A stretch of 64,000 nt of DNA from an uncultured bacterium (GTDB taxonomy: Bacteria > Patescibacteriota > Minisyncoccia > Phycocordibacterales > UBA2100): the NCBI GenBank assembly GCA_903824595.1, contig CAIJXH010000004.1, forward strand, positions 40,697-104,696, given 5' to 3'. Below the pieces are notes generated by a model. The model had not been told where the DNA came from, searched no databases, and saw only the letters and a list, made by a program, of their open reading frames with translations. Positions 45,605 through 62,419 of this stretch are shown here, in pieces; positions within the stretch are counted from its first letter, which is position 1, and each line of letters starts with the position of its first letter. The position numbers and the translations under genes are program-made.

Positions 45605-45608
45605 TGTG

Positions 45609-46814
45609 TTATGCGTCAATGCGCAGCGACCACAGAGATTGATCGATTGCATTCTTGAAGATAAGATACTTTCCGCGCACGTCAATAGAAGGGTCTTGCA
45701 CATCCACGGGCGTATCGGGCACAAACAAAGTTTCCACGACTCCCGTACGAACGTCAATCTTCCACCACTGATCAGCAAGATGCACCTCACCACGATACCA
45801 CATATCGAGAAAACCATGATTCATAATAGGTGGTGCTGCACAAAATACGACAAATTGATCCGTCGGCGACCATACACATTTATCAGCTATTGTCTTGAGC
45901 GAGACGGGTGTCGTCGTACCATTCACGCGAACAAACAGGGTTGGCTGCTCATCAAAGGTGCTGTACACCATTGACGTGGAAGAGGCGCGCGGCAATACCG
46001 CAAGACCATTACCTCGCGCAAGCGGAACAAGAACATTGTTTTTTTGTACCTCATACGCGTATCCCGCAACACCATCAGCAGGATTTTGTGCGACGATGAT
46101 ACGCCCGTCGGCAAGCCACCGTACGTTCCACCCTACAATATTTGATGAAAATATCTGCATAGGCTTCGATCCGTCGACCCCAGAACGCACGCCCACTAGT
46201 TTGCCTTGTGACGGCAAGAGCGCGACAATTTCTTTTCCAGAAGCACTAAACGCGACAGACTGTACAGTTTTGGCAAGCGGTTTGACGATGAGGGGAGCTA
46301 TTTCAGCGCTCGTGATCTGAACCGTGCCCATACTCGCGCCATCAGCGTTGCGTTCAATTACTCGTCCATCAGAGCTGATAATCGCATCGTATACCGATGG
46401 GACGAGGGTGTTGGTAACACGGACGACCGTGTTCGTATCTAAAAACGCATCAAACACGTTGCCCGTTGCCCGTTCCACAAATCTCACCCGTGTTGAAGAT
46501 GTACCCATGGCGACAAAACCATCCCCTGCGACTGGCTCCGCCGCAATATGCCACGCGCGCGGGAGCGTCGAAGACGCAACAACGTGCGGCGACACATCGC
46601 GCACAGACTGGGCACCACTCGACGATGAGACGAGTTCTTTCGTTCTTTGAGTAGGTCCAAATGACACATCGCCGCCAAGCGCACTCCCCGTGTGGTCATT
46701 CTGAATCCCACGAATTTTTGATTGCAAGAATATATACCACCCGGCAAGCGCCACCACACTCAACACCGTCATGCTGATGAGAAATATTTTTGAGTATTTG
46801 ATGAGAGATTCCAT
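45609..46814 (-). CDS. Membrane-anchored hypothetical protein (N-terminal TM), T4SS-cluster member.
   Basis: 401-aa ORF, single N-terminal TM, beta-rich repeat-like body. Confidence 0.4.
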   Translation of the reverse strand: MESLIKYSKIFLISMTVLSVVALAGWYIFLQSKIRGIQNDHTGSALGGDVSFGPTQRTKELVSSSSGAQSVRDVSPHVVASSTLPRAWHIAAEPVAGDGFVAMGTSSTRVRFVERATGNVFDAFLDTNTVVRVTNTLVPSVYDAIISSDGRVIERNADGASMGTVQITSAEIAPLIVKPLAKTVQSVAFSASGKEIVALLPSQGKLVGVRSGVDGSKPMQIFSSNIVGWNVRWLADGRIIVAQNPADGVAGYAYEVQKNNVLVPLARGNGLAVLPRASSTSMVYSTFDEQPTLFVRVNGTTTPVSLKTIADKCVWSPTDQFVVFCAAPPIMNHGFLDMWYRGEVHLADQWWKIDVRTGVVETLFVPDTPVDVQDPSIDVRGKYLIFKNAIDQSLWSLRIDA

Positions 46815-46824
46815 ACGCTGAGTA

Positions 46825-47877
46825 TTATCGTGCTACGTTCGAAAATAAAATAGTTCCCGCGCCCGATGAATTGAGAAACATGTTGGCGGAAGACGTGAGA
46901 GATACACGCACTTGAGCTTCGTGAGTCTTTGCTCCCTCCGCGCCAATAGTCAGACGATTTGGCTGTGAGCGATTGAAAGGCACCTGCGCACCATTGAGCG
47001 TCCAATCGTACTGAAGCGATGCGTCTCTGGGATCAGATGCAAGATAATACGGGACCGCCACAAGCGACATTTCCACATCATGTGCATCTTCTTGCGCGCC
47101 AATGGCACGATAATAGGTAACGCCGAGCAACGGATCGTCCTGATATAAAACAATATATGGCTCTTTCGATGCAATACGCACCGATGATTCTGTGGCAAGC
47201 GTCCCATCTGTCGTGTGCGCCTCCACCGAAATAGTGTCCGATCCAAACAACACGGGACTTGGAATAATCGCTGATGATTTTCCCACACCAGATACCGACT
47301 GAAGCACCGACACCCCTTTGCGCCACGTAAATATAATGTCTTGTAGCGGCACGAGATGACCATCAGGACGCTTGAAACGCGGGATTGCTTCGAGATGAAG
47401 CATTGAACCAGCAGAAGGAAGCGCACGGCCGCGGAAAGCTTGCGGTACGTACGAGTCTGATTCCCACAATAAATCGAGTTCGGTGGGGCGAATCACCGTG
47501 CTCGCTCGCCCCACTCCATCGACTACTGCATCGACTGCTGTCTCCGATCCAAGGGGACCTGCGGTTACGTCGATTGCGCGCGAGGTGTTTGCGCTTTTTT
47601 TTCCATTGACAACCCATGTCACCGTTCCACTTCCAGCGCCATCAGTAACACTATCAACCGTGATATGAACACTATCACCGGGCCGCGGATATTTCGGCGA
47701 TACTGTCAAAGACACGTCGCCCCCGTCAATCGCTTGCGCATGTGCCAATACAGTCAACATCGCCCACATAAACACACCGTACATCATCATCTGTCGTCTT
47801 CGTGCCATGCGTCTAGTATATCGCGCCGCCAGCAATACCGAGTGATAGGTAAAGTCAAATAGGGTAACTGTGCCCAT
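46825..47877 (-). CDS. Secreted hypothetical protein, T4SS-cluster member.
   Basis: 350-aa ORF with hydrophobic N-terminus MMYGVFMWAMLTVLAHA. Confidence 0.4.
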   Translation of the reverse strand: MGTVTLFDFTYHSVLLAARYTRRMARRRQMMMYGVFMWAMLTVLAHAQAIDGGDVSLTVSPKYPRPGDSVHITVDSVTDGAGSGTVTWVVNGKKSANTSRAIDVTAGPLGSETAVDAVVDGVGRASTVIRPTELDLLWESDSYVPQAFRGRALPSAGSMLHLEAIPRFKRPDGHLVPLQDIIFTWRKGVSVLQSVSGVGKSSAIIPSPVLFGSDTISVEAHTTDGTLATESSVRIASKEPYIVLYQDDPLLGVTYYRAIGAQEDAHDVEMSLVAVPYYLASDPRDASLQYDWTLNGAQVPFNRSQPNRLTIGAEGAKTHEAQVRVSLTSSANMFLNSSGAGTILFSNVAR

Positions 47878-47884
47878 CTACACA

Positions 47885-49111
47885 TTATTGTACTGTGCAA
47901 AGATGGTTTATTCTGCTTACACTGAACCGAAAAGATTGCAAAAATGTACACCTTGGCAATGAAGCAGGGACAGTTCCATCAATATAGGTAAAAGTACCCT
48001 CAGTCAAACTACCTGTTGTTCCTGATAATGGTTTATAAGAATACGTGTTCGGTTGCTGTTTTGGAACACTCACAGAATCGCCAATGTTCACAACATCTCC
48101 AACAAAATATCTTTGTGTTAAATCTCTCAGACCAGATCCGTTTTGCATTGATTGAACTGTTTGCAATCCCACAATCCCATCTACTGTTAAATTATGTGCT
48201 TGTTGATATTGCCTTACCGCTGCTTCAGTTTTTGGACCAAATACACCATCTGATTTGCCGGTATTATATCCATTAGCTGTCAGAAAATCTTGCAAATTAG
48301 ATACATTTTTACCACGATCCCCAACACTCAACACATCCCCGTTGTTCTGGATATCGTTTAGAGTTTGCCCTATGGCACTTGGAGAAACTGGCTTCGCTGT
48401 TCTGGCAGCTTGTGGTATCGGGGCGAATCCCGCCTTCTTGCACTGCGCATCCACCAAAGCCTGGACTTGTTTGATACACGTCGCACACACAGTATTAATC
48501 TCCCTGAATTCTTCTTTAAAACCATTGCCTTTGTACACACCATTCTCCGATCCATCGGTACACCTACACTCCTCGGCGGTTGAATCTGATAACACGGCGA
48601 CATTTGGCTTGAGCCACAAAAACCACACCGCTCCATATCCTTGTTGCGCTTGCTCTTCGGAAAGGTGGTACTGGGTGCCACATAGATCCATGCTCTCTTT
48701 GCTTATCATGGCCCCTGCTTCATTATTCGACAATGTCAGACGACTTTTTATATTTGTATTCTTGTCAGCCCGATACGCACCTTTCGCATCACGAGATGAG
48801 ACACGAAAACACTCAAGATTCTTTGCTAAGCTAGCTGGCCTATCCTGAAAATCCCTTGAAACAGCAACTACTCTCCCCACCTTGATTCCGACAGACTTTC
48901 CCTCAAAATTCTCCGCAATATGTTCGTGACACCTGAACAAGCTCTGGAGCAGATTCGCATCAACACCCGATGTACTCGCCCCCCCCGCCACCTGACCCGC
49001 ACTCGGCACCGACTGCGAAGAAACGGCGATGGTGAAGAAAAGCGCGGCGGCAATGATACCAGCGGGGAGCGTGGGAAGGATGGTGGTTTTATATCGCACG
49101 GTGTTACTCAT
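47885..49111 (-). CDS. Secreted protein with C-terminal peptidoglycan-binding (PG_binding_1-like) domain.
   Basis: LQDFLTANGYNTGKSDGVFGPKTEAAVRQYQQAHNLTVDGIVGLQT matches the PGRP/PG-binding_1 repeat consensus. Confidence 0.5.
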   Translation of the reverse strand: MSNTVRYKTTILPTLPAGIIAAALFFTIAVSSQSVPSAGQVAGGASTSGVDANLLQSLFRCHEHIAENFEGKSVGIKVGRVVAVSRDFQDRPASLAKNLECFRVSSRDAKGAYRADKNTNIKSRLTLSNNEAGAMISKESMDLCGTQYHLSEEQAQQGYGAVWFLWLKPNVAVLSDSTAEECRCTDGSENGVYKGNGFKEEFREINTVCATCIKQVQALVDAQCKKAGFAPIPQAARTAKPVSPSAIGQTLNDIQNNGDVLSVGDRGKNVSNLQDFLTANGYNTGKSDGVFGPKTEAAVRQYQQAHNLTVDGIVGLQTVQSMQNGSGLRDLTQRYFVGDVVNIGDSVSVPKQQPNTYSYKPLSGTTGSLTEGTFTYIDGTVPASLPRCTFLQSFRFSVSRINHLCTVQ

Positions 49112-49166
49112 GCCGTATATACTATCATTGTTGCGCTCGCGCTACCACCCCCATGTGTATTACGAA

Positions 49167-49286
49167 GTGCCTATCCCCTCACGACATGTTCGACGAGGTC
49201 TTTGCAGCGCGACGGCGCGAAACAGAGGGATTTTTCAGCAGAAAAATCCCGACCTCGGAGAATCGTGTCGTGAGGGGATAGGCACC
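49167..49286. mobile_element. MITE-like palindromic element copy 1 (120 bp; 21-bp terminal inverted repeats GTGCCTATCCCCTCACGACA; flanked by TATTACGAa / TATTACGAc).
   Basis: Near-perfect long hairpin with nested stems. A second near-identical copy at 52489..52608 has a different flanking duplication. Confidence 0.7.
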
Positions 49287-49307
49287 TATTACGACACGCG
49301 TATCCCA

Positions 49308-51272
49308 TTACGACGTGGGAGCAGTATCAGCGCGCGCCACTTTTGCCGCTGACGCAATGTTCCCACTGTCGGGAACAGCAGAAAGACGTGAGTGTGGAGG
49401 TTGTATGCGCGAAGAAGAAATCGGAGCGGAAGAGGTCTCTACAGCTGCTGCGTTCGTTTCTTGCGTCGCTTCCATTTCTTGTTTTGCTTTTTTGATTGCG
49501 AGAATCTGCGACGGATCGGAGGTTATGATCTGATCTTCGGTGTACGATGCGACCACCTTGATCGCGACATGCTTCAATCCCGCAAAGAAAATCCCCTCTC
49601 CCACATCACTTTCGAGCAGAAGGTACTTCTCTTCATCGGAAAGCTTGAAGGTGCTCTGTACAAGATCCACCGAAGTCGGCGACTGACGCAACAGCATCTG
49701 GATTGAGGAGTTGGTAATCATCGGGACGCCGTACGGAGAATTGAGGAAGTCGGAGACGTCTTGCGTGATCGTGGAGACGCCGAGGAAATATTTGCGTCCG
49801 CGCTTGATGATGCCGAAAAGGAATGAGGCGGTATCTTGGCTTCTCATCATCCACCATGCCTCGTCGATGATGAGGAGGCGTTTGCGTAGCTCTTTTCTCA
49901 CCGTGTTCCAAATATGATGCGTGATGATGTACATGGCGACCGGCTTGAGATCGTCTTCCATGTCGCGCACCGAGAAGACGACGAGCTTTTTGTTCATGTC
50001 GACATTGGTCGGACGATTCATAAAGCCAGACCACGTGCCTTTTGTATATTTCGAGAGGCGCGCAACGAGCGAGTCACTCCCCTCCATACCCGACAGCACG
50101 AGTTCGAAATCGGAGAGAAGAGGCGGTTCGACTGCGGCAAAATTAGAATCCGGGGTTATGTCTTTGAGCGCGTAGGTCTCGGTGATGGCTTTATCGATCA
50201 CGGCATCTTCTTCTGGAGTGAGTCCGCCGAGCATGATGCGGAAAAGTCCCACAAGCGTGATAATGTTGTTGCGCAACACATCGGACGGAGCTTCGTCTTC
50301 GCGCGGGATCGGAAGATCGAAAGGATTGATATGGTGTTCGGACGAAAGCGAAATATTGAAGTAACGTCCGCCCACCGTCTCGGCGAGATACTCATACTCA
50401 CGCTCTGGGTCGATGACGATCACCTCCACGTCAAACATGAGCGAGCGCAAAATCTCGAGCTTGGTCATGTATGACTTCCCTGCGCCCGATTTCGCAAAGG
50501 TGACGGAGTTGTAGTTTTCGAGCGAGAAACGATCGAACAGGATGAGTGAAGAATTGTGACGATTGATGCCGTAGAGAATGCCGCGATCCGAGGTGAGGTC
50601 AAAAGATATGAAAGGAAAGATCGACGACAATGGCGCTGAATTTAGTTTTGTATGCACGTCAAGCTCATCAGTACCAAGCGGCAACGTGGAACGAAATCCC
50701 TGCTCCTGCTGAAACAGCGCCGGACGTATATACACAAGCCGCGACTCCAAAACCGATCGCACATCACTTTCTATTTTGTCGAGCTCGTCTCGCGTTGCCG
50801 CGTAAATCGTGATGTACAAACCAACATCAAAGATACGTTCCTGTGCTTGCTGTAAACTATCGCGAAGCTGTTCAATATCCGCATACGCCGTGTCGAGCAT
50901 CGGATCACGCACCATGCCCGATTCTTCACGCGTGGAAATCTGACTTTGCACCTCCGCCACCTTTTTCTGGAATTTGCGCAACATTTCATTGGTATCCATG
51001 GGGTGAATGAACACTGAAATATCTATCACCTTGTCCATGTTGATGATCGGCGCAAACCATCCTGTCGTGAGAAAACGCGGATACGAGATGACAAAAAATG
51101 TACGAGCTATTTTTTCGCCAAGATCAAGCTCGCGCGAATGTATCTTGAGCGCATGCGGCGCAATAACATCTTGTAAATCCAAAATACCCGTGCGATAAAT
51201 CTCCTCGGGCAATATAGGCAATATCTTCGCCGTATCCTGCTTCTTTGTGACAAATAAATCAAGAAATGACAT
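49308..51272 (-). CDS. VirB4/TrbE/CagE-like type IV secretion ATPase (ATPase domain; N-terminal domain encoded by the separate upstream ORF).
   Basis: Walker A FAKSGAGKSYMTK, Walker B VIVIDPEREYEY..., C-terminal motifs of the VirB4 family. Confidence 0.7.
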   Translation of the reverse strand: MSFLDLFVTKKQDTAKILPILPEEIYRTGILDLQDVIAPHALKIHSRELDLGEKIARTFFVISYPRFLTTGWFAPIINMDKVIDISVFIHPMDTNEMLRKFQKKVAEVQSQISTREESGMVRDPMLDTAYADIEQLRDSLQQAQERIFDVGLYITIYAATRDELDKIESDVRSVLESRLVYIRPALFQQEQGFRSTLPLGTDELDVHTKLNSAPLSSIFPFISFDLTSDRGILYGINRHNSSLILFDRFSLENYNSVTFAKSGAGKSYMTKLEILRSLMFDVEVIVIDPEREYEYLAETVGGRYFNISLSSEHHINPFDLPIPREDEAPSDVLRNNIITLVGLFRIMLGGLTPEEDAVIDKAITETYALKDITPDSNFAAVEPPLLSDFELVLSGMEGSDSLVARLSKYTKGTWSGFMNRPTNVDMNKKLVVFSVRDMEDDLKPVAMYIITHHIWNTVRKELRKRLLIIDEAWWMMRSQDTASFLFGIIKRGRKYFLGVSTITQDVSDFLNSPYGVPMITNSSIQMLLRQSPTSVDLVQSTFKLSDEEKYLLLESDVGEGIFFAGLKHVAIKVVASYTEDQIITSDPSQILAIKKAKQEMEATQETNAAAVETSSAPISSSRIQPPHSRLSAVPDSGNIASAAKVARADTAPTS

Positions 51273-51289
51273 ACGGTAATGATAACGTA

Positions 51290-51934
51290 TTACGCTTCAA
51301 GCGGCATCGGTTTTCCTTCTTCTCCAGGATTGAACATTTTGTAGAGGAGCTCGATCGTCTCTTCAGTCCCCAAACGCACCGTGCGCACTCCCGTGCGTAT
51401 CAGCCCCTGTTGCACAACACTGATTCGCTGCTCAAGCTGAGAAAGCTGTTCTTCGAACGATCGATTTGCAGCCTCTGTGCTGCTTTCTTTTTTGAACGAG
51501 AAAAACGACGCCGCTTCCGCGACAGTCGTCGCGCCGCCCGCATAAGGAATGACGACAAAGAAATTCTTGGTCATGATACTTGCTGCTTCAGTGAAGTTTT
51601 TTATGAACTCGATGTATTCGCGGATTTGAATGCGCATGAGGTCGTTGAGCTGTGCTTTGTATGCTTCCTCCAGCGTGGCAACATACGGACGGATGTCGAG
51701 CATGCGCGATTGCACAAAAATTTGTATGGTGAAATCGAGCGCATTGAGACAATTTTGAAACTGCACGATGAACGCCGTCTGCTCGTCTTCAGACTTGAGT
51801 GCGAAGTTGATCGACGACGCAAGAAGAATGGCGCGGAGACTCCCGTCTTTCAAAACGATGATCCCATCACGGACTTCACGCACAGGGACGAAATCTTGAG
51901 TCGATTTGCTTGCGTTTGTGGTGGAATGCGGCAT
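51290..51934 (-). CDS. VirB4 N-terminal-domain-like protein (split from the ATPase domain by a 17-nt gap and a frame change).
   Basis: DFVPVREVRDGIIVLKDGSLRAILLASSINFALKSEDE matches the conserved N-terminal CagE/TrbE/VirB4 segment. Confidence 0.5.
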   Translation of the reverse strand: MPHSTTNASKSTQDFVPVREVRDGIIVLKDGSLRAILLASSINFALKSEDEQTAFIVQFQNCLNALDFTIQIFVQSRMLDIRPYVATLEEAYKAQLNDLMRIQIREYIEFIKNFTEAASIMTKNFFVVIPYAGGATTVAEAASFFSFKKESSTEAANRSFEEQLSQLEQRISVVQQGLIRTGVRTVRLGTEETIELLYKMFNPGEEGKPMPLEA

Positions 51935-51946
51935 AGGTATATACGA

Positions 51947-52435
51947 TTATACACGCATCGTCCGCGATGCTGGCAATGGCACGCCATCCATGCCGCGCTC
52001 CTCGTCTCGCGCAATACCCCCCGCGACTCGCTCCTTGATATCGAGTGACCACGCCAAATCACGAAGCTTGCTTTCAGACAGTTTGGGCACATACGTTTCC
52101 GTCGTAACGATCCCCGCTTTTTTCTGCTCCCCCACGCCATCTTTCCACTTCATGCGACGCTGATTGCTCCAGAGGTAGAATTTTGTTCGCATAAGGTACC
52201 GCAAACCATTTTCGAGCGCGTCGATAAACGGGCGATCGTTGTATGTGATAAACGCAAGCGCAAGCGCGAAAGCTGCGAGTATAATCATGCACGGGATCGC
52301 GATCAAAGACGGGAGCAACCTCCACACCAGGTACGACGCCCCCGCCCCTCCCACCACAAACACAAACTGCTTGAACGTAAGAGGACCAAAAATCTTGTCC
52401 TCGACTTCAATAAACTGCGGAACCTGAAACTGCAT
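51947..52435 (-). CDS. VirB3/PrgI-like small membrane protein (putative).
   Basis: MQFQVPQFIEVEDKIFGPLTFKQFVFVVGGAGASYLVW: N-terminal motif plus two TM helices, as in VirB3-like proteins preceding VirB4. Confidence 0.4.
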   Translation of the reverse strand: MQFQVPQFIEVEDKIFGPLTFKQFVFVVGGAGASYLVWRLLPSLIAIPCMIILAAFALALAFITYNDRPFIDALENGLRYLMRTKFYLWSNQRRMKWKDGVGEQKKAGIVTTETYVPKLSESKLRDLAWSLDIKERVAGGIARDEERGMDGVPLPASRTMRV

Positions 52436-52488
52436 ATTGCCAGTATACCAAGCGTATCGACGTGCTCATGACCTGTTTGTGCGTATCA

Positions 52489-52608
52489 GTGCCTATACCC
52501 TCACGACATGTTCGACGAGGTCTTTGCAGCGCGACGGCGCGAAACAGAGGGATTTTTCAGCAGAAAAATCCCGACCTCGGAGAATCGTGTCGTGAGGGTA
52601 TAGGCACC
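52489..52608. mobile_element. MITE-like palindromic element copy 2 (flanked by a perfect 9-bp duplication TGCGTATCA). An adjacent partial third copy lies at ~52623..52666.
   Basis: Identical to copy 1 except one compensatory pair of substitutions in the terminal stem (C->A on the left arm, G->T on the right arm). Confidence 0.7.
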
Positions 52609-52671
52609 TGCGTATCACCATCACACGACGCGTTCGACGAGGTCTTTGCAGTGCGACGACGCACAGGTTAT

Positions 52672-53202
52672 TCACGCCGCTTCTCGATACGGGTCGTCGG
52701 CGACCGAGGCACGCGACACACTCGTCTCTCCCGGTCGATACCCATCGTTGACTATCGGCACACGCATGACACGCATGGCGTGAGGCGCGGGAGGGGGTGT
52801 CGCGGGCACAGGAGGAGCTGGCGCGACCACCGACTCACGCGACGAAACGGGCGCGCTCGGCAATGGTGCCGCCTCTTTCTTTTCAAGCTCATGTTCAAGC
52901 GCTACGCGAATCGGCTCGAACACAACGCGTGAAATATCTCGCACAAGCGCGGTTGCCACATCGGCAGGAACGCCCACTTCCTTTTCCACGTTTGCCGCGA
53001 GAGCATCTACCGACTGAATGCCCAGCATCGCGAGCATCACCTCGTTCTCGAGTTGCTCCCATTGATCAATATGAAGTTTGTATAGAGTGGAAAGCTCGCG
53101 CAAATGATGCTCGACATCGGCAGACACAATCGCCTCTTGCACAATGCGTGGCAACGTGGAGAAACGCTCTTGCAATTGTTGTTGAATATCCGACGTGGTC
53201 AT
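52672..53202 (-). CDS. Hypothetical helical protein with Pro/Ala-rich tail (T4SS cluster).
   Basis: 176-aa ORF. Confidence 0.35.
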   Translation of the reverse strand: MTTSDIQQQLQERFSTLPRIVQEAIVSADVEHHLRELSTLYKLHIDQWEQLENEVMLAMLGIQSVDALAANVEKEVGVPADVATALVRDISRVVFEPIRVALEHELEKKEAAPLPSAPVSSRESVVAPAPPVPATPPPAPHAMRVMRVPIVNDGYRPGETSVSRASVADDPYREAA

Positions 53203-53225
53203 AGAAGATGAATATGGTAAGTATA

Positions 53226-55514
53226 TTATTTTTTAGCGGACGTTGGGTCTTTGGTCTCTTTCAGTTTCTCTCTCAATCCTTCGAGAAGTCTGTCCGCCTC
53301 TTTCTTCTCCTTACCCTTTTTTACCTGATCGCGTGCAAGCTGCGCCAGAGAATCATCAGACTCGTTGCCGAGAAGCCCAAATAATCTCGCGGCGCGCCCA
53401 TGCGCCAGTGTAGCAGCGTTGTCTGCAACGGAGTACTCCAGATTACCTCCTTCGGTGACCCGTAGCGCACGATACTTGTCTGCAACCGCATTTTTGAGTA
53501 CGTCTGTTTCAACACGCGTCTTGTCGCGTTGCGCATTCTCGTATATTTTCTGCGCATTCTCGAGTACCTGCTTCGTTGCCGCAGACGCGTCTTCAATATT
53601 TTTTGCTGCGGCTTTTATCCTGCTATCAACTGCGTCAATTTCGCCTTGCTTTTTGCTTATTGTTTTTTTATCCGCACCATTACGCTTGAGCTTGAGGTCG
53701 TTGAGCTCCGCTTCTTTTTTATTTTTCTCCAATTCGGCAGCCGCCTTTTCTGATTTATGTTGCCGAACTTCACGACTAGATTCGACATCATCGTGAGCCG
53801 CTCTTACGGTCACCAGATTTTTCGCGGCTTGTTCGAGGTGTGTACTTGCAACGCCAAGTCTCTCGTCATGTGATTGTTTGATAATTTTATCCCGAATCAC
53901 CTGTGTATTTGGCTTGAGACGTTCCGCTTGAGCGGCATATCCCTTCGCCTTCTCCGTGCGTACACCCTTGAACCCTCCATACGTGGTGATACCCGCGCCA
54001 TCCAAGCCCGAGAGTTTGGCAAGCTGTTTGCCCGCGGCGGTGTTCATGAAATTGAAATCGCTTTTGGCAACCGCACTGGTCGGTTTATGAAACAATTCAT
54101 CGACCATGCGTGCGCGCACGTTTTTCCCTTGTCCTGCAAGGTTACCTCTCCACCTCTCCGTTCTATTTGCTAAGCTCGAGCTCATCCCCCCCAGTACCGT
54201 ACGACCCGCAAACCCGCCAAACTTTGCCGCACCAAGCACGGGCACCATCAGCGACGCGGCACTCAGTACGCGCGAAAGCCCCCCGCCCGCCACACTGCCC
54301 GACACCATACTGGCGACGCGAAGCGAGACGAACAAGAGTGCAATAATAATCGTTGCGTTGACCAGCGCAGGGACCGATTGTTCCGCTTGCCCCGACGCCA
54401 GCAACTGACCAAGCGTCGACACGTTCCACGTACTATGCGCGTAATCTGAAAAAGCGTGCGCGATCATCAAGTTTGCCCACAAAAGCATCATGAGCAGCGG
54501 GGCGAGTACGGCGTTGTGAATAAGCGATCTCCACCATCGTTCCCACCCAAGCTCGATAAAGTCACCGGGAATAAGCCAGCTTGCAAACGCGATCGCCGAT
54601 ACCAACATGAGAAAAATAAGTGACACCGCTCGATACACGAGAAGAAATGATCCAAACACAAACACACACGCAATTGCCGCGAGAATGACGAACGATACAA
54701 GACCATACAGCAGACCGACCCACGCGTTTTGCGCCGAATATCCTACGCTAATCGCACTGCTATCGAATATGCCATTCACTCCTATGTATTGCATGAATTT
54801 CGCCGCAATGCCGCCCGTACCGGGAGACACAACGGTATTGGACGACGTGCGAGTGACGGGAGTGGCGATGTCATCACTTTTCAACATGCTCGTGTAAAAT
54901 TGCGCCGCGGTGAAATTGGAAACATCGACAATCATCTTGGTAAACAAAAGACTGAAATTGAGCAAGATTGCGATAATGAGCACGCGCGCGATGCGACGCT
55001 TGTCACCAAACTGAGTTATACCGAGAATGAGACACACGGCGGTAAATACGAACATACCAATGATGATAATGTCGGCAATATCGCGGAAAAATGTCCACCC
55101 CACGTCGATTCCGTTGGTAATAGCGCTGAACAACGAACCGAATCCGACCACCACGTGTCCCAGTAAAAACTCAAACATTCTTCCCGAAAATTCCGCAAAA
55201 AATACACCGACGGCGACAAGAATATTCCCGATCCCTCCTGTGATCCATCGCAGCCAACACCCCCCATCTACCCAACTCTTTGCACCAGTACACGCGCTCG
55301 ACGAAAGCACAGACGACGCATCGGCAGTATTGTAGTTAGCCGATCCTGTGCCGTTTGGGTCGAATGGTGTTTCCTGGGCTTGAGATTGCGTCTGTGCATA
55401 TGCAACGCGTGCGGGCACGAGTACCACGCTTGCAAACAAGAACGCAAGTATCACAAGCACAAAACCAGCTCGTATTCGCACTGCTCTCGTCGCGTGTGTC
55501 GTCATAATTTCCAT
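53226..55514 (-). CDS. Large polytopic membrane protein, VirB6/TrbL-like (putative T4SS inner-membrane channel component) with C-terminal coiled-coil.
   Basis: >=8 TM helices over ~450 aa followed by a Lys/Glu/Ala-rich coiled-coil tail. The topology and position next to VirB4 fit VirB6-like proteins. Confidence 0.45.
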   Translation of the reverse strand: MEIMTTHATRAVRIRAGFVLVILAFLFASVVLVPARVAYAQTQSQAQETPFDPNGTGSANYNTADASSVLSSSACTGAKSWVDGGCWLRWITGGIGNILVAVGVFFAEFSGRMFEFLLGHVVVGFGSLFSAITNGIDVGWTFFRDIADIIIIGMFVFTAVCLILGITQFGDKRRIARVLIIAILLNFSLLFTKMIVDVSNFTAAQFYTSMLKSDDIATPVTRTSSNTVVSPGTGGIAAKFMQYIGVNGIFDSSAISVGYSAQNAWVGLLYGLVSFVILAAIACVFVFGSFLLVYRAVSLIFLMLVSAIAFASWLIPGDFIELGWERWWRSLIHNAVLAPLLMMLLWANLMIAHAFSDYAHSTWNVSTLGQLLASGQAEQSVPALVNATIIIALLFVSLRVASMVSGSVAGGGLSRVLSAASLMVPVLGAAKFGGFAGRTVLGGMSSSLANRTERWRGNLAGQGKNVRARMVDELFHKPTSAVAKSDFNFMNTAAGKQLAKLSGLDGAGITTYGGFKGVRTEKAKGYAAQAERLKPNTQVIRDKIIKQSHDERLGVASTHLEQAAKNLVTVRAAHDDVESSREVRQHKSEKAAAELEKNKKEAELNDLKLKRNGADKKTISKKQGEIDAVDSRIKAAAKNIEDASAATKQVLENAQKIYENAQRDKTRVETDVLKNAVADKYRALRVTEGGNLEYSVADNAATLAHGRAARLFGLLGNESDDSLAQLARDQVKKGKEKKEADRLLEGLREKLKETKDPTSAKK

Positions 55515-57130
55515 GCCGCCGACCATCGGTTTATCACCGCAGGATTTTTGATGTTGCACCAGCCAACCGTCGCGTCGGTGTTGTCTCCCCATGCCGTGAC
55601 CGTATCTTTGAGGAGCGTGTTCATGGCATTTTGCGTATCGCTTTGTTTTTGTGCAGCGTTCTGTGCATCATACTGCGTATGCAGAGCCCCTTGCGCGACA
55701 AGCTGATCGAGCATCTGCAGCGATGCCTGCTGTTCGGCAACCGTCTTTGCATTGGCTATACCCGAGATCATCGTGTTGATTCTTGCGAGTGCCGTTTGTG
55801 ATGTGTGAATGTTGTCGATCGTTGTCGAAGCAAGAGGAGCAATTTGCGCGTCGATGACGCCTTGCGACGCGAGTGTCGACGTTGCGATCTTTTCTTTCGG
55901 AGCTTCTTGCGAAACACTTCCATCGGAAGCAGGTGTTGTCGAACCCATACACACGCTGTCTACAGGAGGCGCAACACACACATGCCTTTCTGGATGATCA
56001 TCTTTCTGATACGTGATCAAATCCCAGCATTTCGTTTCTGCAGCTCGTAACTGCCCGATTGTTTGCGTAAGATTTTGTGCGGTTGCATTCATTGCCGACA
56101 AATACTTGAGTTCATTCTGACGCGCCGCTGTCAGAATGCCAAGCGCCGCGTTGCCTGTGGCACCCACGACACCATTGCTCGATGCGGTGGTCATAGCATC
56201 CAGGAACGATGGTCCGCCGTTGTTTTGTGCAAGTCCTTTTAGTCCTTGCGCACTTGTCATCACTTGCGTCGAAACACCTGCGTACAGCGAACTAATCATC
56301 TGTCCGATATCGGTAGCATTTTCGAGTTGAGAAAACCCTGACTGTACGAGCTGATTTGCATTGCTCGCAACCATCGCACCAGGCGTAACCGTGATGGTAT
56401 TTCCATTATCGTCAAGCTGTTCGACTCCATAAATGCCATTGCCCGTTTGGAGTTTGAACAGCATCTGACCAACCGAGGTGTCTACTTGACGGTCGACCGC
56501 ATTTCGCACCAGCGATGCCGCACCCAATGGATTACATGCGGGATTCATGAAATTGTGAAAATCGTCAAACGAGAACGGGCGCGACGTGGGGTTGGTAATG
56601 TCTGCTTTGAGATCACCGCCGTAATTGCATACCAGCTGGTTGTTGGTGCGTGTTTCTGCCATGTATTGACGCGCGACAGTTGAGCGCACTTGATTGCGGA
56701 ACGCTGGATTGACTTCGTTGATGTTCATAAGCTGTGAAAGCGCCGCCTTATCCCCTGCTGCCACAATATCGGCATTTAGATCGACAGGCCACATAGGATT
56801 GCCGTTACGACCCGTGAGGAATCCTGAAAGACCTTTTTTCGTGAACGAAGCGGTCGCGCTTTCACGCAGACGACTCACCAGCGGGCGCAAGACGCACTGG
56901 AGATAATCCATAATTCCAGAATTGAGCGTCACCGCCGCGTCGTTGACAGGGACGAACGTGCCGCCCATCGCTGCAAACGTTCCAGAGCTTATACTCGCAC
57001 CACCAATGTTGCTGCACCCAAATATTCCATTACTTTGATACTGATACCCAGCGGTTTGCGCCGACACAGACGACGTCGTCAGCATCAAGCCGACCATTAT
57101 GATTCCCACGGTGCGAATGATCTGGCTCAT
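55502..57130 (-). CDS. Secreted hypothetical protein (signal peptide), T4SS-cluster member.
   Basis: MSQIIRTVGIIMVGLMLTTSSVSAQT signal. 542 aa, Asn/Gln/Ala-rich. Confidence 0.45.
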   Translation of the reverse strand: MSQIIRTVGIIMVGLMLTTSSVSAQTAGYQYQSNGIFGCSNIGGASISSGTFAAMGGTFVPVNDAAVTLNSGIMDYLQCVLRPLVSRLRESATASFTKKGLSGFLTGRNGNPMWPVDLNADIVAAGDKAALSQLMNINEVNPAFRNQVRSTVARQYMAETRTNNQLVCNYGGDLKADITNPTSRPFSFDDFHNFMNPACNPLGAASLVRNAVDRQVDTSVGQMLFKLQTGNGIYGVEQLDDNGNTITVTPGAMVASNANQLVQSGFSQLENATDIGQMISSLYAGVSTQVMTSAQGLKGLAQNNGGPSFLDAMTTASSNGVVGATGNAALGILTAARQNELKYLSAMNATAQNLTQTIGQLRAAETKCWDLITYQKDDHPERHVCVAPPVDSVCMGSTTPASDGSVSQEAPKEKIATSTLASQGVIDAQIAPLASTTIDNIHTSQTALARINTMISGIANAKTVAEQQASLQMLDQLVAQGALHTQYDAQNAAQKQSDTQNAMNTLLKDTVTAWGDNTDATVGWCNIKNPAVINRWSAAWKL

Positions 57131-58014
57131 GGTGTTCGTGAGCGCTCGTATTGCGCGAGGTCGTTGAACGCATTGAGCATCACTTGTTCCTTGTCCTGGT
57201 AGGTGCGCAAAAGCGCCGCGCTCGCAAACGGATCATCAACATGCGCGATCATCGCATCGAGTGTTGCCGAAAACGCCGCAAGCGCATTGATAATTGCAAC
57301 ATGGAACGAGAGAAGGTTTGCAGGGACGACAACAGCGCTCACGCCTCGAACAGCGAGCTGATAATTCGCAACCTCTTCCTTGAGCTGATCGAGATACGAA
57401 ACATCGTGTGACGCAATGTAATTGGCATAAAGCTTCAATTCGTAGTCGGGATTTTTGAGGAGTGGTGCGAGTGCCTCCCGCATATCACTCCGATACGTAA
57501 GCATGCGCTGATATGACGTATCGGGACTTGAAGAGAAGTCTGAAGCGGTATAAGTAGGATGCGAGACGTTTGCCTGAAGCGTCTGTGCAATATTTTGTGC
57601 AATAAGCGCTCCTTTTTCTGGAGTGAAACTGCCGCTTTTTTGCAGCACCGCATACGTTTCTGCGAACGTGCCCACCACATTGCCCGCAATGTTCGCAATG
57701 CCGTCAGGATCGTGAGTGTCGTGCAGCACAACAGGCGACGAACTTGAAATATCGAGCAGATCTCTCTGCCATGGCTCATCGTTTGATGGCGATGCTTCTT
57801 CAGACGTCACGCTTGATGTTGCCGCGAACACATTAGTGGCGACTACCATAGAACGTGCCGAAACAATGCGTCCCACAGCCACAATCAAAAGCGTGCAAAA
57901 AGAAATCGCGGCGAGAATTGCCATTGGAGAAAGCGCCTCGGTATGCGAGCGTTCGTCATTCATCTCCTGATTATACCAGTACAAGCACTGCAGTGCGTCT
58001 TCGCCCCAGAACAA
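57127..58014 (-). CDS. Membrane-anchored hypothetical protein, T4SS-cluster member.
   Basis: One TM (AILAAISFCTLLIVAV), 295 aa. Confidence 0.4.
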   Translation of the reverse strand: MFWGEDALQCLYWYNQEMNDERSHTEALSPMAILAAISFCTLLIVAVGRIVSARSMVVATNVFAATSSVTSEEASPSNDEPWQRDLLDISSSSPVVLHDTHDPDGIANIAGNVVGTFAETYAVLQKSGSFTPEKGALIAQNIAQTLQANVSHPTYTASDFSSSPDTSYQRMLTYRSDMREALAPLLKNPDYELKLYANYIASHDVSYLDQLKEEVANYQLAVRGVSAVVVPANLLSFHVAIINALAAFSATLDAMIAHVDDPFASAALLRTYQDKEQVMLNAFNDLAQYERSRTP

Positions 58015-58020
58015 GAACGC

Positions 58021-58869
58021 CTAAAATTGCGACGCGGAAAAAGAGAAAACCTTGCCGGGATCAGTGTCCCCGAACGACACGTCGTACGCCGAAAACATAT
58101 TCGCAAGCCCCACAACGGCACGTATATAATCATCCGCCGCTGTATCATAGGCGAGCATGGCATGTACGCGTTCGGTATCGGTCGTTGCGCGTGGAACCGA
58201 TGTGAGCTTTTCTGCCATGTGAACATATCCGACTGAAAGCTGCGTTGCAATCGACGTAATCTCGGGAGGCGCATCATACAGTGCAAGCGCGTGACCAAGA
58301 GACGCGTATTCGTCTGCGAGAGACTCCACCGCATGGCGAGCCGCACTATCGGCAGGGTGATCAATTTGATCTTTGATCGTCGAGAGAATGGCAGGGTGTG
58401 ACACCTCAAATTCATGAAGCTTCGCGCCTATCGCATTACCATACTCATAGAGTTTCTGTTGTTGCGGTGTACGCACTTTCTCAACAGGTATGGTCGCAAG
58501 CCCTCCAGGGATGAGCGCGTATTCTGGCATATCAAGACCAAAAGCAGCAGAACTCGATGCATGTTCAGAGGTGGAATCGTGCGTATGCACCATATCAGTG
58601 AGAGTTTCAGTATCGCCAGATACGATCGACACATGATCTGAATTGGTGGTGACAATTCCTACCGTGCGCACGTCTCCTACAACAGGAAGAGAAGGAGTGT
58701 GGTAGGTCTCTGATATCGTATGAGCAAATATCGCGTCGCTATGTTCCCATGACTGCACTGACGCAATCGGCACGGGAATTGTTTTCACAACAAAGATACA
58801 CAGAAACACCCCAAGTATTCCACCTATACCTACGCCATAGGGTCGCATGTATTTCCACGACATACACAC
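58021..58869 (-). CDS. Membrane-anchored hypothetical protein, first gene (5'-most) of the minus-strand T4SS-like cluster.
   Basis: N-terminal TM GVGIGGILGVFLCIFVV, 282 aa. Confidence 0.4.
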   Translation of the reverse strand: MCMSWKYMRPYGVGIGGILGVFLCIFVVKTIPVPIASVQSWEHSDAIFAHTISETYHTPSLPVVGDVRTVGIVTTNSDHVSIVSGDTETLTDMVHTHDSTSEHASSSAAFGLDMPEYALIPGGLATIPVEKVRTPQQQKLYEYGNAIGAKLHEFEVSHPAILSTIKDQIDHPADSAARHAVESLADEYASLGHALALYDAPPEITSIATQLSVGYVHMAEKLTSVPRATTDTERVHAMLAYDTAADDYIRAVVGLANMFSAYDVSFGDTDPGKVFSFSASQF

Positions 58870-58895
58870 AGTATATAGGAATTACAAATCAAGAC

Positions 58896-59243
58896 ATGGC
58901 GCGATGGTACAATGCACTCATGCAATGGATGCGCACAATGGGAATCACGCTACTTATGATCTTGTGTATAACCCCCTCAACGGCACGGGCTTTCCCCTTT
59001 GGCGGTACAGCAGGCGTTGTGCTCCCCTGCTTCAACGCGACCATCTACGTAGCCGTGGGACCTCCGCTTGGAGGCAGCTTCATCTGGACTACTGCAACAA
59101 AGACGTTCCCCAATGGCCCTCCCACACACAGCGGGCAAAAACTTCTCGGGCTTGCGGGACCTCCGTACTACTGCATTTTTTCTATCGCACCTGTTATTAC
59201 GTGGGCTGGCATTGCGATGACGATGGTCGGCACAAGCAAGTAA
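58896..59243 (+). CDS. Small secreted/membrane protein (possible pilin-like). Plus-strand ORF between the T4SS-like cluster and ksgA.
   Basis: N-terminal hydrophobic signal MGITLLMILCITPSTARA and a C-terminal hydrophobic segment. Overlaps the ksgA 3' end on the opposite strand. Confidence 0.3.
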   Translation: MARWYNALMQWMRTMGITLLMILCITPSTARAFPFGGTAGVVLPCFNATIYVAVGPPLGGSFIWTTATKTFPNGPPTHSGQKLLGLAGPPYYCIFSIAPVITWAGIAMTMVGTSK

Positions 59244-60039
59244 TAGAGGTGGTGAATCGTTTCCAATCAAGAATGGTGAGACGTTCAGCGCGTATGCACG
59301 GATCTATATTTACGCTACCACACGCGCGATGCACAATCTCCTTATCATAGAGGTGCGTCATATTACTTCCAAACATCTTCCGTTTTGCCGCAAATCCCGC
59401 GTGCACGATTTTGAAAAAATCACGCTCGGTGATGTCTGAAAAGAAATCGCGTGTAATGTCTTCGATGAGCAAAATCGCGGAATCCACCGATGGCGGTGGG
59501 GAGAAATTGCCGCGCCCGACTTTTGCGACAATCTTCGGCACACCATACACCTTTACCGAAAGTGACAGCATGCTTTCTTTCTTATCGCGCGCAATAATGC
59601 GTTCCGCGACTTCTTTCTGAACAAGCAGCGCCATCGCACGTGGCTGCATTTCCGCGGTGAGAAATTGTTTGATGATTTCGCCGGTAATGTAGTACGGAAT
59701 ATTCGCCGCAACAACATATGCTCCCGACGGCGTGAAATCGCGCACGTCACCTATCACAATAGTGAGCTTCCCCGCCACAACGTCTGACGCAAACGTTGTA
59801 TGTAGTTCTTCCGCAAGCGCCTCGTCTTTTTCTATCGCGATGACGCGCGCGCCCGTCGCGAGCAGTTTTTGTGTGAGAGCGCCCTTGCCAGGACCGATCT
59901 CGACGATCGTCTCCCCCTCGCGTACCGCCACCGACTTCGCAAGCACGTCCGCATAGTGCGTGTTCGTCAAAAAATGCTGCCCCAGCCGCGCACCCCGCTT
60001 TTTCACGGTTGCTTTATGACTTTGGTAAAGTCTGACCAT
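59197..60039 (-). CDS. rsmA: 16S rRNA (adenine1518/1519-N6)-dimethyltransferase.
   Basis: LGQHFL, IVEIGPGKGALT, AANIPYYIT motifs of KsgA/RsmA. Confidence 0.85.
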   Translation of the reverse strand: MVRLYQSHKATVKKRGARLGQHFLTNTHYADVLAKSVAVREGETIVEIGPGKGALTQKLLATGARVIAIEKDEALAEELHTTFASDVVAGKLTIVIGDVRDFTPSGAYVVAANIPYYITGEIIKQFLTAEMQPRAMALLVQKEVAERIIARDKKESMLSLSVKVYGVPKIVAKVGRGNFSPPPSVDSAILLIEDITRDFFSDITERDFFKIVHAGFAAKRKMFGSNMTHLYDKEIVHRACGSVNIDPCIRAERLTILDWKRFTTSITCLCRPSSSQCQPT

Positions 60040-60284
60040 TGTTCAATACGGAACGCGCGAATATCGCGCACGGAGAGCGTAAACCATGGCAGAGCTTTGA
60101 GCGCGATGATCGCCTGAAACAAATTCGCCATGTCTTCGCTCTTTGTTACATACACACTGCCCTGTATCCTCTCAAAATCAAAATGCTCAAGTGTCGCGGC
60201 GATGTCCGTGTATGCCTGCGTGACGTTCTTGGGATGATGCTTGCTCGCATCGGCGACGACAAGATCGAACGTAATGGCGAACAT
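60003..60284 (-). CDS. vapD: VapD-family endoribonuclease (Cas2-like fold).
   Basis: MFAITFDL...IQGSVYV...WF..SVRDIRAFRI...DFT parallels H. influenzae VapD (MYAIAFDL...TQGSVYV...WFKKSVRDIRAFKV..DFT). Confidence 0.75.
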   Translation of the reverse strand: MFAITFDLVVADASKHHPKNVTQAYTDIAATLEHFDFERIQGSVYVTKSEDMANLFQAIIALKALPWFTLSVRDIRAFRIEQWSDFTKVIKQP

Positions 60285-60286
60285 AC

Positions 60287-60466
60287 CTATTCGACGGGGT
60301 CTGTGGCAATGTCTTTGATCGGGTATGCTGTCTCCTCTCCGGTTTCCAATACGCGGATTCGCGCGGATTTTTCGTCTATTTCTTTCAACACTTCGTAAAG
60401 CACCCCGTAAGACCCGAAGCGCCGGATGGAACCGACAAGTCGATCAGAAGTTACAACGTGATTCAT
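60287..60466 (-). CDS. 59-aa ORF immediately upstream of vapD (not in the >=60-aa ORF track). Putative VapX-like partner/antitoxin.
   Basis: Translated by hand: MNHVVTSDRLVGSIRRFGSYGVLYEVLKEIDEKSARIRVLETGEETAYPIKDIATDPVE*. Ends 2 nt before the vapD start. Confidence 0.35.
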   Translation of the reverse strand: MNHVVTSDRLVGSIRRFGSYGVLYEVLKEIDEKSARIRVLETGEETAYPIKDIATDPVE

Positions 60467-60517
60467 ACGGTGAGTGTAGCATTGTCTTTGGTGGATGCAA
60501 TCTAATCGCCCAAAATT

Positions 60518-62419
60518 CTACAACAACTCAATCATCCGCTCGCCTTCTTCGGGACGTCGATTTGGACTCGCCCACTCGATGAGTCGTTGATCGATCTCGC
60601 CGAGGAATTCCGACGGAAGCGCGTGTTCGCGCGAACCGTACTTCATGCGCTCATTTGCATACGAGAGGAAAAGCCGCTTGCGCGCACGCGTAACGGCGAC
60701 ATAAAAGAGGCGGCGCTCTTCTTCGGAATCCCGATCGTTGTCGCTCTCACGCATGGAAGGGAAAAGCCCCTGCTCAAGCCCCGTGACAAACACCGCATCA
60801 AACTCCAACCCTTTTGACGCATGCACCGTCATGAGCGATACCGCATCTTGCCGCTCATCCAGATTGTCTTGATCACTCTGAAGTGCCGCTTCTTCAAGCA
60901 AACGCTCCACGCCTTCGGGCGGCGGAGCGTCGTTGTACCGGGCGGCGAGGTTGACCAATTCGTGGACGTTGCCGATGCGCTCCATTCCCTCTTCCGTATC
61001 TTTTTTCAAAAAAGCCTCGATGCCGCTGATTTCAAACGCAAAGCGCACCGCGTCGGCACACGGCACCGTCTCGATCGCTTTTTTGATCGCCGCAAGCATA
61101 TCGCGAAACGCTGCCGCCTTCGCACCCGCCGCGCCGGGAAGTGCCTCTCCGGCAATCATCTTATCGACCGTCACCTTGCCGATGCCGCGCGGCGGTACCG
61201 CAATGATGCGGCGGATGTCGACGCCGCTTTTCGGGTTGAGCGCCGCACGCAGATACGAGAGTACGTCTTTCACTTCTTTGCGCTCAAAGAATCGCGTGCC
61301 GAGAATCCGGTACGGAATCCCCGACGCAAGCAGTGCTTCTTCGAGTGCGCGCGACTGGAAATTCTCGCGGTACAGAACGGCGATTTCGCGCGGAGAAATC
61401 CCCTGCCGTATGAGCTCTTCCGTTTTCGCCGCGACGAACCACGCCTCATCCGTCTCATTGAATGCGCCATACAGGAGAATCGGGTCGCCGGTCGGATTCT
61501 CGGTGAAAAGATGCTTTGGCTTGCGGCGCACATTTTTCTCGATCACCGAATTTGCGGCGGAGAGAATCGTGCGCGTCGAGCGATAGTTCTGTTCGAGCAA
61601 CACAACGGCAGTGCCCGGAAACGCATCTTCAAATGATAAAAAGTTTTCAATATCTGCTCCACGCCACCCGTAGACCAGTTGGTCCCCATCGCCCACTACA
61701 CATAGATTCCGCCGCTCCCCGGCCAACAATCGCGCGATTTCGTACTGTGAACGATTCGTATCTTGATACTCGTCGATCGTAATATGCGTCCAGCGGTTTT
61801 GAAGAAGCGACAAAACCGACGGATTGTCGCGAAGCAGGGTGAGTGTCCGCAGGAGCAAATCGTCGAAATCCAGTGCACCCTCATCCCGCATCGTTTTCTC
61901 GTACGCATCCCACACCCGAGCGATCGTCTGTTCGCGGAAACTGCTCGCGCGTTCGGCATACGCCGCACCCGACATACCATCACCCTTCTTGCGCGAGATC
62001 ACGCCGAGCGCGCTCTTTGCCTGCAAATCCCCAAACCCAAGACTCTCGATAATTCTCTTGATCGCTTTCATACTGTCGTCGCGATCCCAGATGGAAAAAT
62101 TGCGCTCTATCCCTGCTTCCTGATGAAACTCGCGCAAAAGCCGCACGCCAAGTGAGTGAAACGTCGCCAGAAACGGCATCCCGCCCGATCGCTCCCCAAG
62201 TAATCGCATCACGCGTTCGCGCATTTCTCCCGCAGCCTTATTCGTAAAGGTGACCGCAAGTATATTTCTGCCCGGCACGCCGCTTTCTATGAGATGCGCG
62301 ATGCGGTGCGTAATTGTTTTTGTTTTCCCAGCTCCCGCACCCGCAACAATGAGAACGGGTCCTTCCATTTTCAACACAGCCTCTCGCTGGCGATCATTCA
62401 ATCCATCAACATACGTCAT
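60518..62419 (-). CDS. pcrA: UvrD/PcrA-type ATP-dependent DNA helicase.
   Basis: LNDRQREAV...GPVLIVAGAGAGKTKTITHRIAHLI (motif I), TFTNKAAGEMRER, DEYQDTN, VGDGDQLVYGWRGA, C-terminal VTRARK motifs. Start at MTYVDG. Confidence 0.85.
   Translation of the reverse strand: MTYVDGLNDRQREAVLKMEGPVLIVAGAGAGKTKTITHRIAHLIESGVPGRNILAVTFTNKAAGEMRERVMRLLGERSGGMPFLATFHSLGVRLLREFHQEAGIERNFSIWDRDDSMKAIKRIIESLGFGDLQAKSALGVISRKKGDGMSGAAYAERASSFREQTIARVWDAYEKTMRDEGALDFDDLLLRTLTLLRDNPSVLSLLQNRWTHITIDEYQDTNRSQYEIARLLAGERRNLCVVGDGDQLVYGWRGADIENFLSFEDAFPGTAVVLLEQNYRSTRTILSAANSVIEKNVRRKPKHLFTENPTGDPILLYGAFNETDEAWFVAAKTEELIRQGISPREIAVLYRENFQSRALEEALLASGIPYRILGTRFFERKEVKDVLSYLRAALNPKSGVDIRRIIAVPPRGIGKVTVDKMIAGEALPGAAGAKAAAFRDMLAAIKKAIETVPCADAVRFAFEISGIEAFLKKDTEEGMERIGNVHELVNLAARYNDAPPPEGVERLLEEAALQSDQDNLDERQDAVSLMTVHASKGLEFDAVFVTGLEQGLFPSMRESDNDRDSEEERRLFYVAVTRARKRLFLSYANERMKYGSREHALPSEFLGEIDQRLIEWASPNRRPEEGERMIELL

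Follow-up and report, generated by a model that had tools for sequence, protein, structure and literature searches.

VapD systems and the pcrA-ksgA locus

The partners of the toxin VapD, namely VapX, VapY, and VapW, were surveyed in mBio in 2025 (PMC11980593). VapX is an SH3-like beta-barrel with a C-terminal helix, and one VapX binds one VapD dimer (PMC11980593); the mechanism and toxicity of VapXD have been described (PMC11980593, PMC3560280). In VapY, the SH3 fold consists of five strands, with a helix placed between the first two; VapY has no C-terminal helix and no sequence similarity to VapX (PMC11980593). VapW is a paralogue of VapD that is as large as the toxin but inactivated. The putative catalytic residues of VapD have been named as Asp7 and Ser43 (PMC11980593). 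Here, we describe a vapD gene and a small gene directly upstream of it in DNA from an uncultured bacterium of the Patescibacteriota (Minisyncoccia; Phycocordibacterales; UBA2100). The window analyzed is a stretch of 64,000 nucleotides (nt), positions 40,697 to 104,696 of contig CAIJXH010000004.1 in GenBank assembly GCA_903824595.1. The two genes lie between pcrA and ksgA and encode members of the VapX and VapD families. With a probability of roughly 0.88, the locus is a canonical VapXD type II toxin-antitoxin module, both in family membership and, by analogy, in having a Haemophilus influenzae-type mode of action.

The genes of the locus are as follows (positions in the window).
60518..62419, minus strand: pcrA/uvrD-type helicase gene, 633 amino acids (aa) according to public contigs; the longest open reading frame (ORF) reaches 62686.
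60287..60466 including the stop codon, minus strand: vapX, a 59-aa ORF with a match to PF17375/DUF5397.
60003..60284 including the stop codon, minus strand: vapD, a 93-aa ORF with a Cas2-like ferredoxin fold.
59197..60006, with the longest ORF extending to 60039, minus strand: ksgA/rsmA (16S rRNA dimethyladenosine transferase), TIGR00755.

The gene order on the minus strand is therefore pcrA, a 51-nt spacer between the pcrA stop codon and the vapX ATG, vapX, a 2-nt gap (TAG GT ATG), vapD, and ksgA. Profile searches matched pcrA to TIGR01073 (E = 2.8e-202) and ksgA to TIGR00755 (190 bits; cut-off, 171). An earlier note on this DNA, made from the sequence alone, had placed two small ORFs between these genes, and both the ORF list and the flank profiles bear out its coordinates and layout.

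Comparison with described systems

The module in the window resembles H. influenzae VapXD (6ZN8; PMC3560280) in having the antitoxin gene first and the two genes almost abutting, in a toxin that is 65% identical with the same D7 and S43, and in an antitoxin of the same Pfam family with a beta-barrel plus C-terminal helix fold. It differs in that the antitoxin has diverged far more than the toxin, to about 27 to 35% identity. The N-terminal tail before the domain is 10 residues long, compared with about 26 in H. influenzae VapX, and there are deletions of 3 and 2 residues relative to the latter. The setting also differs, since the window module is chromosomal, in a housekeeping operon of a candidate phyla radiation (CPR)/Patescibacteria host, whereas the host of H. 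influenzae VapXD is a proteobacterial pathogen.

Plasmid-borne pairs on the Neisseria gonorrhoeae cryptic plasmid, Citrobacter pMobC, and Acidithiobacillus p4 likewise encode a DUF5397 protein (61 to 68 aa) directly upstream of VapD (92 to 104 aa). The VapD proteins on Neisseria and Citrobacter plasmids are 68 to 70% identical to that of the window, and the gonococcal and Citrobacter DUF5397 proteins, at 61 to 63 aa, belong to the same length class as the 59-aa protein. In plasmid records of RefSeq, the upstream gene of the pair already bears the name "DUF5397 family protein" and the downstream gene either "endoribonuclease VapD" or "virulence factor"; a total of 179 plasmid records have a VapD match, 142 of them from Neisseria. 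In contrast to the module of the window and those most closely related to it, which appear to be leaderless, pMobC has a classical ribosome-binding site (AAGGAGG) in front of vapX.

VapYD systems have the same toxin family, and VapY, too, is an SH3-like barrel. However, the 59-aa protein matches the VapX Pfam model, and its structural model has the layout of VapX and not that of VapY, the latter being compared by its published description (PMC11980593). Neither is the 59-aa protein an inactivated VapD paralogue of the VapW kind. CRISPR Cas2 shares the ferredoxin-like fold with VapD, which matches Cas2 profiles, but the closest sequence relatives of the window protein are all VapD toxins.

The downstream gene encodes a VapD toxin

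The 93-aa protein matched H. influenzae VapD (PDB 6ZN8 chain A) with an E value of 3e-34 and was 65% identical to it over 91 aa, ungapped; the D7N crystal variant 6ZI1 was also among its PDB matches. Both putative catalytic residues, D7 and S43, are aligned and present, and both are retained in all of the distinct intact VapD homologues that we extracted (15/15). These homologues are 92 to 95 aa long with the same termini, and the whole C-terminal SVRDIRAFRIEQWSDFT block is conserved. In addition, the window protein exceeded the gathering score of Pfam Cas2 (27.8 versus 23.8 bits) and matched the PADLOC Cas2 profile with an E value of 1.3e-11. The identification of the 93-aa protein as VapD with a Cas2 fold, already made in the earlier note, is thus well founded.

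The upstream gene encodes a short VapX

A direct sequence search with the 59-aa protein returned just 6 close homologues, and neither NCBIfam nor PADLOC gave a match. The impression of novelty that these searches leave when taken alone was overturned by Pfam, profile, and fold searches. The protein scored 29.0 bits against PF17375 (DUF5397), for which the gathering score is 26. Since the residues of H. influenzae VapX that are ordered in 6ZN8 chain C scored 92.6 bits on PF17375 at the same model positions (10 to 61), DUF5397 is the VapX family. A profile of 107 homologues aligned to VapX in hhalign with 94.3% probability, an E value of 1e-7, and 35% identity. A profile built from the six closest relatives of the 59-aa protein retrieved 272 representatives at 50% identity, among them proteins matching VapX at an E value of 1e-15, so that sequence space is continuous from the window subfamily to canonical VapX. 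The family of the 59-aa protein comprises at least 415 clusters at 90% identity.

The AlphaFold (AF2) model of the protein, with a mean predicted local distance difference test (pLDDT) score of 83, has strands at residues 14 to 17, 22 to 29, 34 to 39, and 45 to 49, followed by a C-terminal helix at 50 to 55; no helix between strands 1 and 2 is present in this model. In Foldseek, the two best PDB matches of the model were 6zn8_C and 6zn8_F (probability, 1.00; template modeling [TM] score, 0.61 to 0.65), with SH3 and KOW domains ranking after VapX. We also aligned the protein with DUF5397 proteins of the gonococcal cryptic plasmid, Citrobacter pMobC, an Acidithiobacillus plasmid, two proteobacterial metagenome-assembled genomes (MAGs), and H. 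influenzae; the residues in common are G12, F17, G18, G21, Y24, I37, G43, E44, Y48, D56, and P57.

Judged by sequence and predicted structure, the 59-aa protein belongs to the known family of VapX antitoxins, of which it is a short member, and is no new partner. The proposal in the earlier note that it might found a new VapD partner family fails on the PF17375 score, the hhalign probability, and the top-ranking VapX folds. Its remark that the protein has no obvious similarity to VapX is true by eye, but profile and fold comparisons detect VapX clearly. The same note had also pointed to a small upstream ORF in the antitoxin position, and this ORF is a real gene, with a Pfam match and hundreds of conserved homologues.

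As a side observation, the VapX-family proteins P0257, P0247, P0254, P0291, P0295, P0302, P0306, and P0342 are 129 to 225 aa long and have two or three separate VapX-profile matches each. They may represent tandem VapX domains or fused gene calls.

Association of vapX with vapD in related loci

The co-occurrence of the two genes was assessed in 18 independent non-self loci, each with a gene homologous to that of the 59-aa protein. A vapD gene or a decayed vapD lies directly downstream in 17/18 loci. It is intact in 13 of the 18, starting at most 11 nt past the vapX stop codon or overlapping it by 1 nt; two further loci have a frameshifted vapD, two have a truncated one, and one has none. The earlier note had allowed for a 59-aa ORF not conserved beside vapD, and conservation beside vapD or its remnant is what these loci display. 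The decayed modules, in which vapX is intact and vapD is lost or damaged, are as follows.
L007:546-780: vapD truncated, 19 codons retained.
L009:103-450: vapD truncated, 55 codons retained, followed by a fragment of insertion sequence (IS) IS1595.
L012: vapD frameshifted.
L016: vapD frameshifted.
L018: vapD absent.

This asymmetric decay, with vapX kept and vapD damaged, fits selection against the toxin with retention of the antitoxin. The hosts of the loci include Adlerbacteria, Saccharibacteria, Kaiserbacteria, a Nanoarchaeota MAG, several alphaproteobacteria, Parashewanella, and Mycoavidus. VapD was consistently better conserved than VapX, with 64 to 85% versus 37 to 68% identity to the window proteins, and VapD of the most closely related modules was 77 to 85% identical to that of the window.

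The Nanoarchaeota MAG (locus L012; JBBSYZ010000038.1), binned as a DPANN archaeon, carries vapX and the frameshifted vapD with 53% and 64 to 78% identity to the window proteins, respectively. This pair is explained either by interdomain transfer among episymbionts or by misbinning of the contig.

Insertion of vapXD at the pcrA-ksgA junction

The best named homologues of the window KsgA belong to Candidatus Kaiserbacteria and Patescibacteria (57 to 63% identity); together with the named homologues of VapX, they indicate a Kaiserbacteria-like CPR host. On the contig encoding the closest KsgA (P0127; 72% identity), vapXD is absent and pcrA ends 4 nt after the ksgA start, while in L027 (63% identity) pcrA and ksgA overlap by 14 nt. 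A third relative, L024, has a pcrA C terminus nearly identical to that of the window, and its pcrA-ksgA gap contains a different ORF of 132 aa, on the opposite strand and without a Pfam match. These relatives show synteny in the genes that follow ksgA. Related vapXD modules occur after a type II secretion system (T2SS)-type ATPase gene (L005), after a glutaredoxin gene (L008), and beside an IS fragment (L009). Because pcrA overlaps ksgA in relatives and related modules lie in unrelated contexts, vapXD is a lineage-specific insertion, about 0.5 kb long, in a variable spot of a housekeeping operon. Small accessory genes seem to have a hot spot at the pcrA-ksgA site. Neither a recombinase near the module nor a compositional signature of the module was found.

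Three minor observations concern this junction. The pcrA-ksgA gap of L024 (L024:3249-4000) also contains a terminator-like hairpin, AAAGCCCCGC..GCGGGGCTT. The pcrA product of the P0127 contig is 1008 aa long with a weak Intein_splicing match, so this helicase probably carries an intein, unlike the 633-aa pcrA product of the window. In the window itself, a 24-nt imperfect direct repeat (19/24 matches) lies at 60294-60317 and 60467-60490, so that the last vapX codons (..IKDIATDPV) are similar to the stretch just upstream of the vapX ATG, which includes the -10 element described below. Its match value was reached in 1 of 200 shuffles, and the repeat was not seen in ten related loci; it may be the remnant of an old duplication or recombination, or chance.

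Predicted promoter and probable coupling to ksgA

A candidate promoter of the module could be read from the sequence upstream of vapX.
60473..60500, minus strand: predicted module promoter.
60500..60495, minus strand: -35 element TTGCAT, with a 16-nt spacer to the -10 element.
60481..60473, minus strand: extended -10 element TGcTACACT, ending 6 nt before the vapX ATG.

The motif TGnTAnnnT ends 5 to 8 nt before the predicted vapX ATG in 8/18 loci, for which the chance expectation is about 0.004 per locus, and it occurs within 22 nt of the predicted ATG in three further loci. A TTGC-type -35 element at a spacing of 16 to 17 nt is present in L008, L011, L013, and L014. This pattern suggests that the module carries its promoter along when it moves and that transcription from it would yield a leaderless vapX mRNA. 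No Shine-Dalgarno sequence precedes the vapX ATG, which is explained by the conserved -10 element being placed for a leaderless mRNA. A generic promoter and terminator scan detected no terminator-like site after pcrA, so read-through from pcrA is also likely.

Inverted repeats that might serve as an operator were limited in the window to short, weak pairs, none convincing. Two related loci each have a palindrome, perfect or nearly so, that overlaps the -10 element predicted for vapX, at L010:2950-2991 (AGTGTACCAC..GTGGTACACT) and L011:2915-2958 (CACATAG..CTATGTG). These palindromes are possible operator sites, without an obvious counterpart in the window.

At the other end of the module, a GTG start of ksgA at 60006..60004 gives the N terminus MKKRGARLGQHFL, matching that of the closest homologue (MKQRGARLGQHFL) and corresponding to the commonest N-terminal length among about 120 KsgA homologues. 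The 11 extra residues of the longest ksgA ORF, with an ATG at 60039, are not conserved, and public gene calls use both starts (269 aa from the GTG and about 280 aa from the ATG). By comparison of homologues, ksgA most likely starts at the GTG and overlaps the vapD TGA stop codon by 4 nt (GTGA). An overlap of about 37 nt between vapD and ksgA, as previously noted, applies to the longest ORF, while the homologue N termini favor 4 nt. The GTGA-type overlap is of the same kind as the pcrA-ksgA junction in the closest relative. Because the ksgA start overlaps the vapD stop, translation of ksgA is probably coupled to that of vapD, as it is to that of pcrA in relatives without the insertion.

CRISPR context

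No CRISPR-like spaced direct repeats were detected in the 64-kb window. Ten large ORFs (~41.9 to 58.9 kb), a part of the ORFs of the window, were scanned for cas genes, and none were found among them. The previous statement that no cas1 or CRISPR repeats are nearby therefore stands for arrays across the whole window and for cas genes among the ten ORFs scanned. These results agree with the view of vapXD as a standalone module.

Proposed mode of action and alternative explanations

By analogy with the H. influenzae pair, VapD would be a Cas2-fold nuclease, active as a dimer with a shared cleft carrying D7 and S43, and one VapX would bind one VapD dimer and occlude that cleft. Upon loss or degradation of VapX, free VapD would be expected to arrest growth. 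The gene layout suggests that vapX and vapD, 2 nt apart with the antitoxin first, are co-transcribed, probably both from their own extended -10 promoter as a leaderless mRNA and by read-through from pcrA.

Several points weigh against reading the locus as a canonical VapXD module. Some VapD genes stand alone and are not obviously toxic (PMC11980593). The sole match of the 59-aa protein in a phmmer search of the PDB was VapX (6zn8_C), and this match was weak (E = 0.67). The window and H. influenzae VapX share 27 to 28% identity in structural alignment, the window VapX lacks a DNA-binding domain in recognisable form, and the compatibility of its interface with VapD is suggested by family membership. 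The window VapD matched the VapD equivalog NF041506 of NCBIfam over the full model length with 39.9 bits (E = 4.1e-10), below the cut-off of 100. Evidently, this model centers on another VapD clade, and on sequence grounds the family assignment is decided by direct similarity to the crystallised VapD; the shortfall probably also accounts for the frequent annotation of genes of this kind as no more than a "virulence factor." Finally, the generic promoter and terminator scan called nothing above chance level. It missed the proposed promoter because the -35 element matches just 3/6 positions.

Some of these points would suit a 59-aa protein that founds a new VapD antitoxin family unrelated to VapX, for which the weak pairwise similarity (phmmer E = 0.67) and a length shorter than that of H. 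influenzae VapX, with ~5 residues missing in one loop, could be cited. Such a family is very improbable, given that the protein passes the PF17375 gathering score on the same model that VapX matches, that the hhalign probability is 94.3% and the best PDB folds are VapX, and that a profile of close relatives reaches VapX matches of E = 1e-15 through continuous sequence space. The length is no obstacle either, as the gonococcal and Citrobacter DUF5397 proteins (61 to 63 aa) are in the same class. It is scarcely credible that the 59-aa ORF is spurious and vapD an orphan, even though ORFs of its class are frequent by chance in the region (70 ORFs of at least 30 aa within 5.5 kb) and a Shine-Dalgarno sequence is absent before its ATG. 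The ORF is conserved in sequence, with 51 to 70% identity across hundreds of metagenomic and genomic homologues, and in its position upstream of vapD; its product matches a Pfam family and has a fold predicted with confidence, and the -10 placement for a leaderless mRNA accounts for the absent Shine-Dalgarno sequence.

A further alternative is that the module is VapXD by descent but no longer a toxin-antitoxin system, with VapD attenuated or repurposed (for RNA processing or ksgA control) and VapX acting as a regulator. We consider this unlikely. About half of VapD homologues are without an antitoxin and what VapD targets in vivo is not known (PMC11980593), the pair sits inside a housekeeping operon with ksgA attached closely behind it, and decayed copies are common among relatives, all of which would be compatible with a change of function. 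However, both ORFs are intact, D7, S43, and the C-terminal SVRDIRAFRIEQWSDFT block are conserved, and VapD is 77 to 85% identical to the copies in the closest related modules. The antitoxin has been retained, as expected if the toxin is still dangerous, and decay in relatives loses vapD and keeps vapX (L007 and L009), the pattern expected for an active toxin. The family membership of both proteins, together with their gene order and catalytic residues, thus continues to favor a canonical VapXD module, whose VapD would be toxic and neutralised by VapX.

Implications for VapXD in reduced genomes

As a toxin-antitoxin call, the locus is ordinary, and the novelty claimed for it, a new antitoxin family, disappeared after profile and fold comparisons. 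The comparisons do show explicitly that the DUF5397 family of Pfam and the VapX antitoxins are one and the same, although the Pfam/PGAP label is still "unknown function"; a 2026 paper on gonococcal genomics (PMC13508793), which associates DUF5397 with disseminated infection, lists it as uncharacterised. They also place VapXD in reduced CPR genomes and, possibly, in Nanoarchaeota (one MAG). The literature searched contained no papers linking VapD with Patescibacteria.

The conserved leaderless-promoter layout and the clean insertion into a housekeeping operon make the locus a possible small model of the way in which toxin-antitoxin cassettes become established in minimal genomes. That the insertion seems to re-create a coupled junction with ksgA is of minor interest. 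A more speculative idea, and in our view a doubtful one, is that Patescibacteria-type VapXD is a self-contained leaderless mini-cassette (promoter, vapX, and vapD, with no recombinase) that lands at coupled housekeeping junctions and captures the expression of the downstream gene. If so, the toxin gene could not be cleanly deleted without disturbing KsgA synthesis, and bacteria with tiny genomes would be addicted to the module at a second level, in addition to that of the toxin-antitoxin pair.

Genes downstream of ksgA

A block of genes on the same (minus) strand lies downstream of ksgA, at ~45600-58870 of the window. It includes genes for proteins of 282, 295, 542, and 788 aa without a Pfam match, followed by a gene for a VirB4/TraC-like ATPase at 49311-51272 and one for a protein with a peptidoglycan-binding domain at 47888-49111. 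Proteins of 350 and 401 aa encoded in the block are also without a Pfam match. The block genes closest to ksgA are syntenic in L024 and L027. Together, these genes may form a type IV secretion or pilus-like cluster of the CPR.

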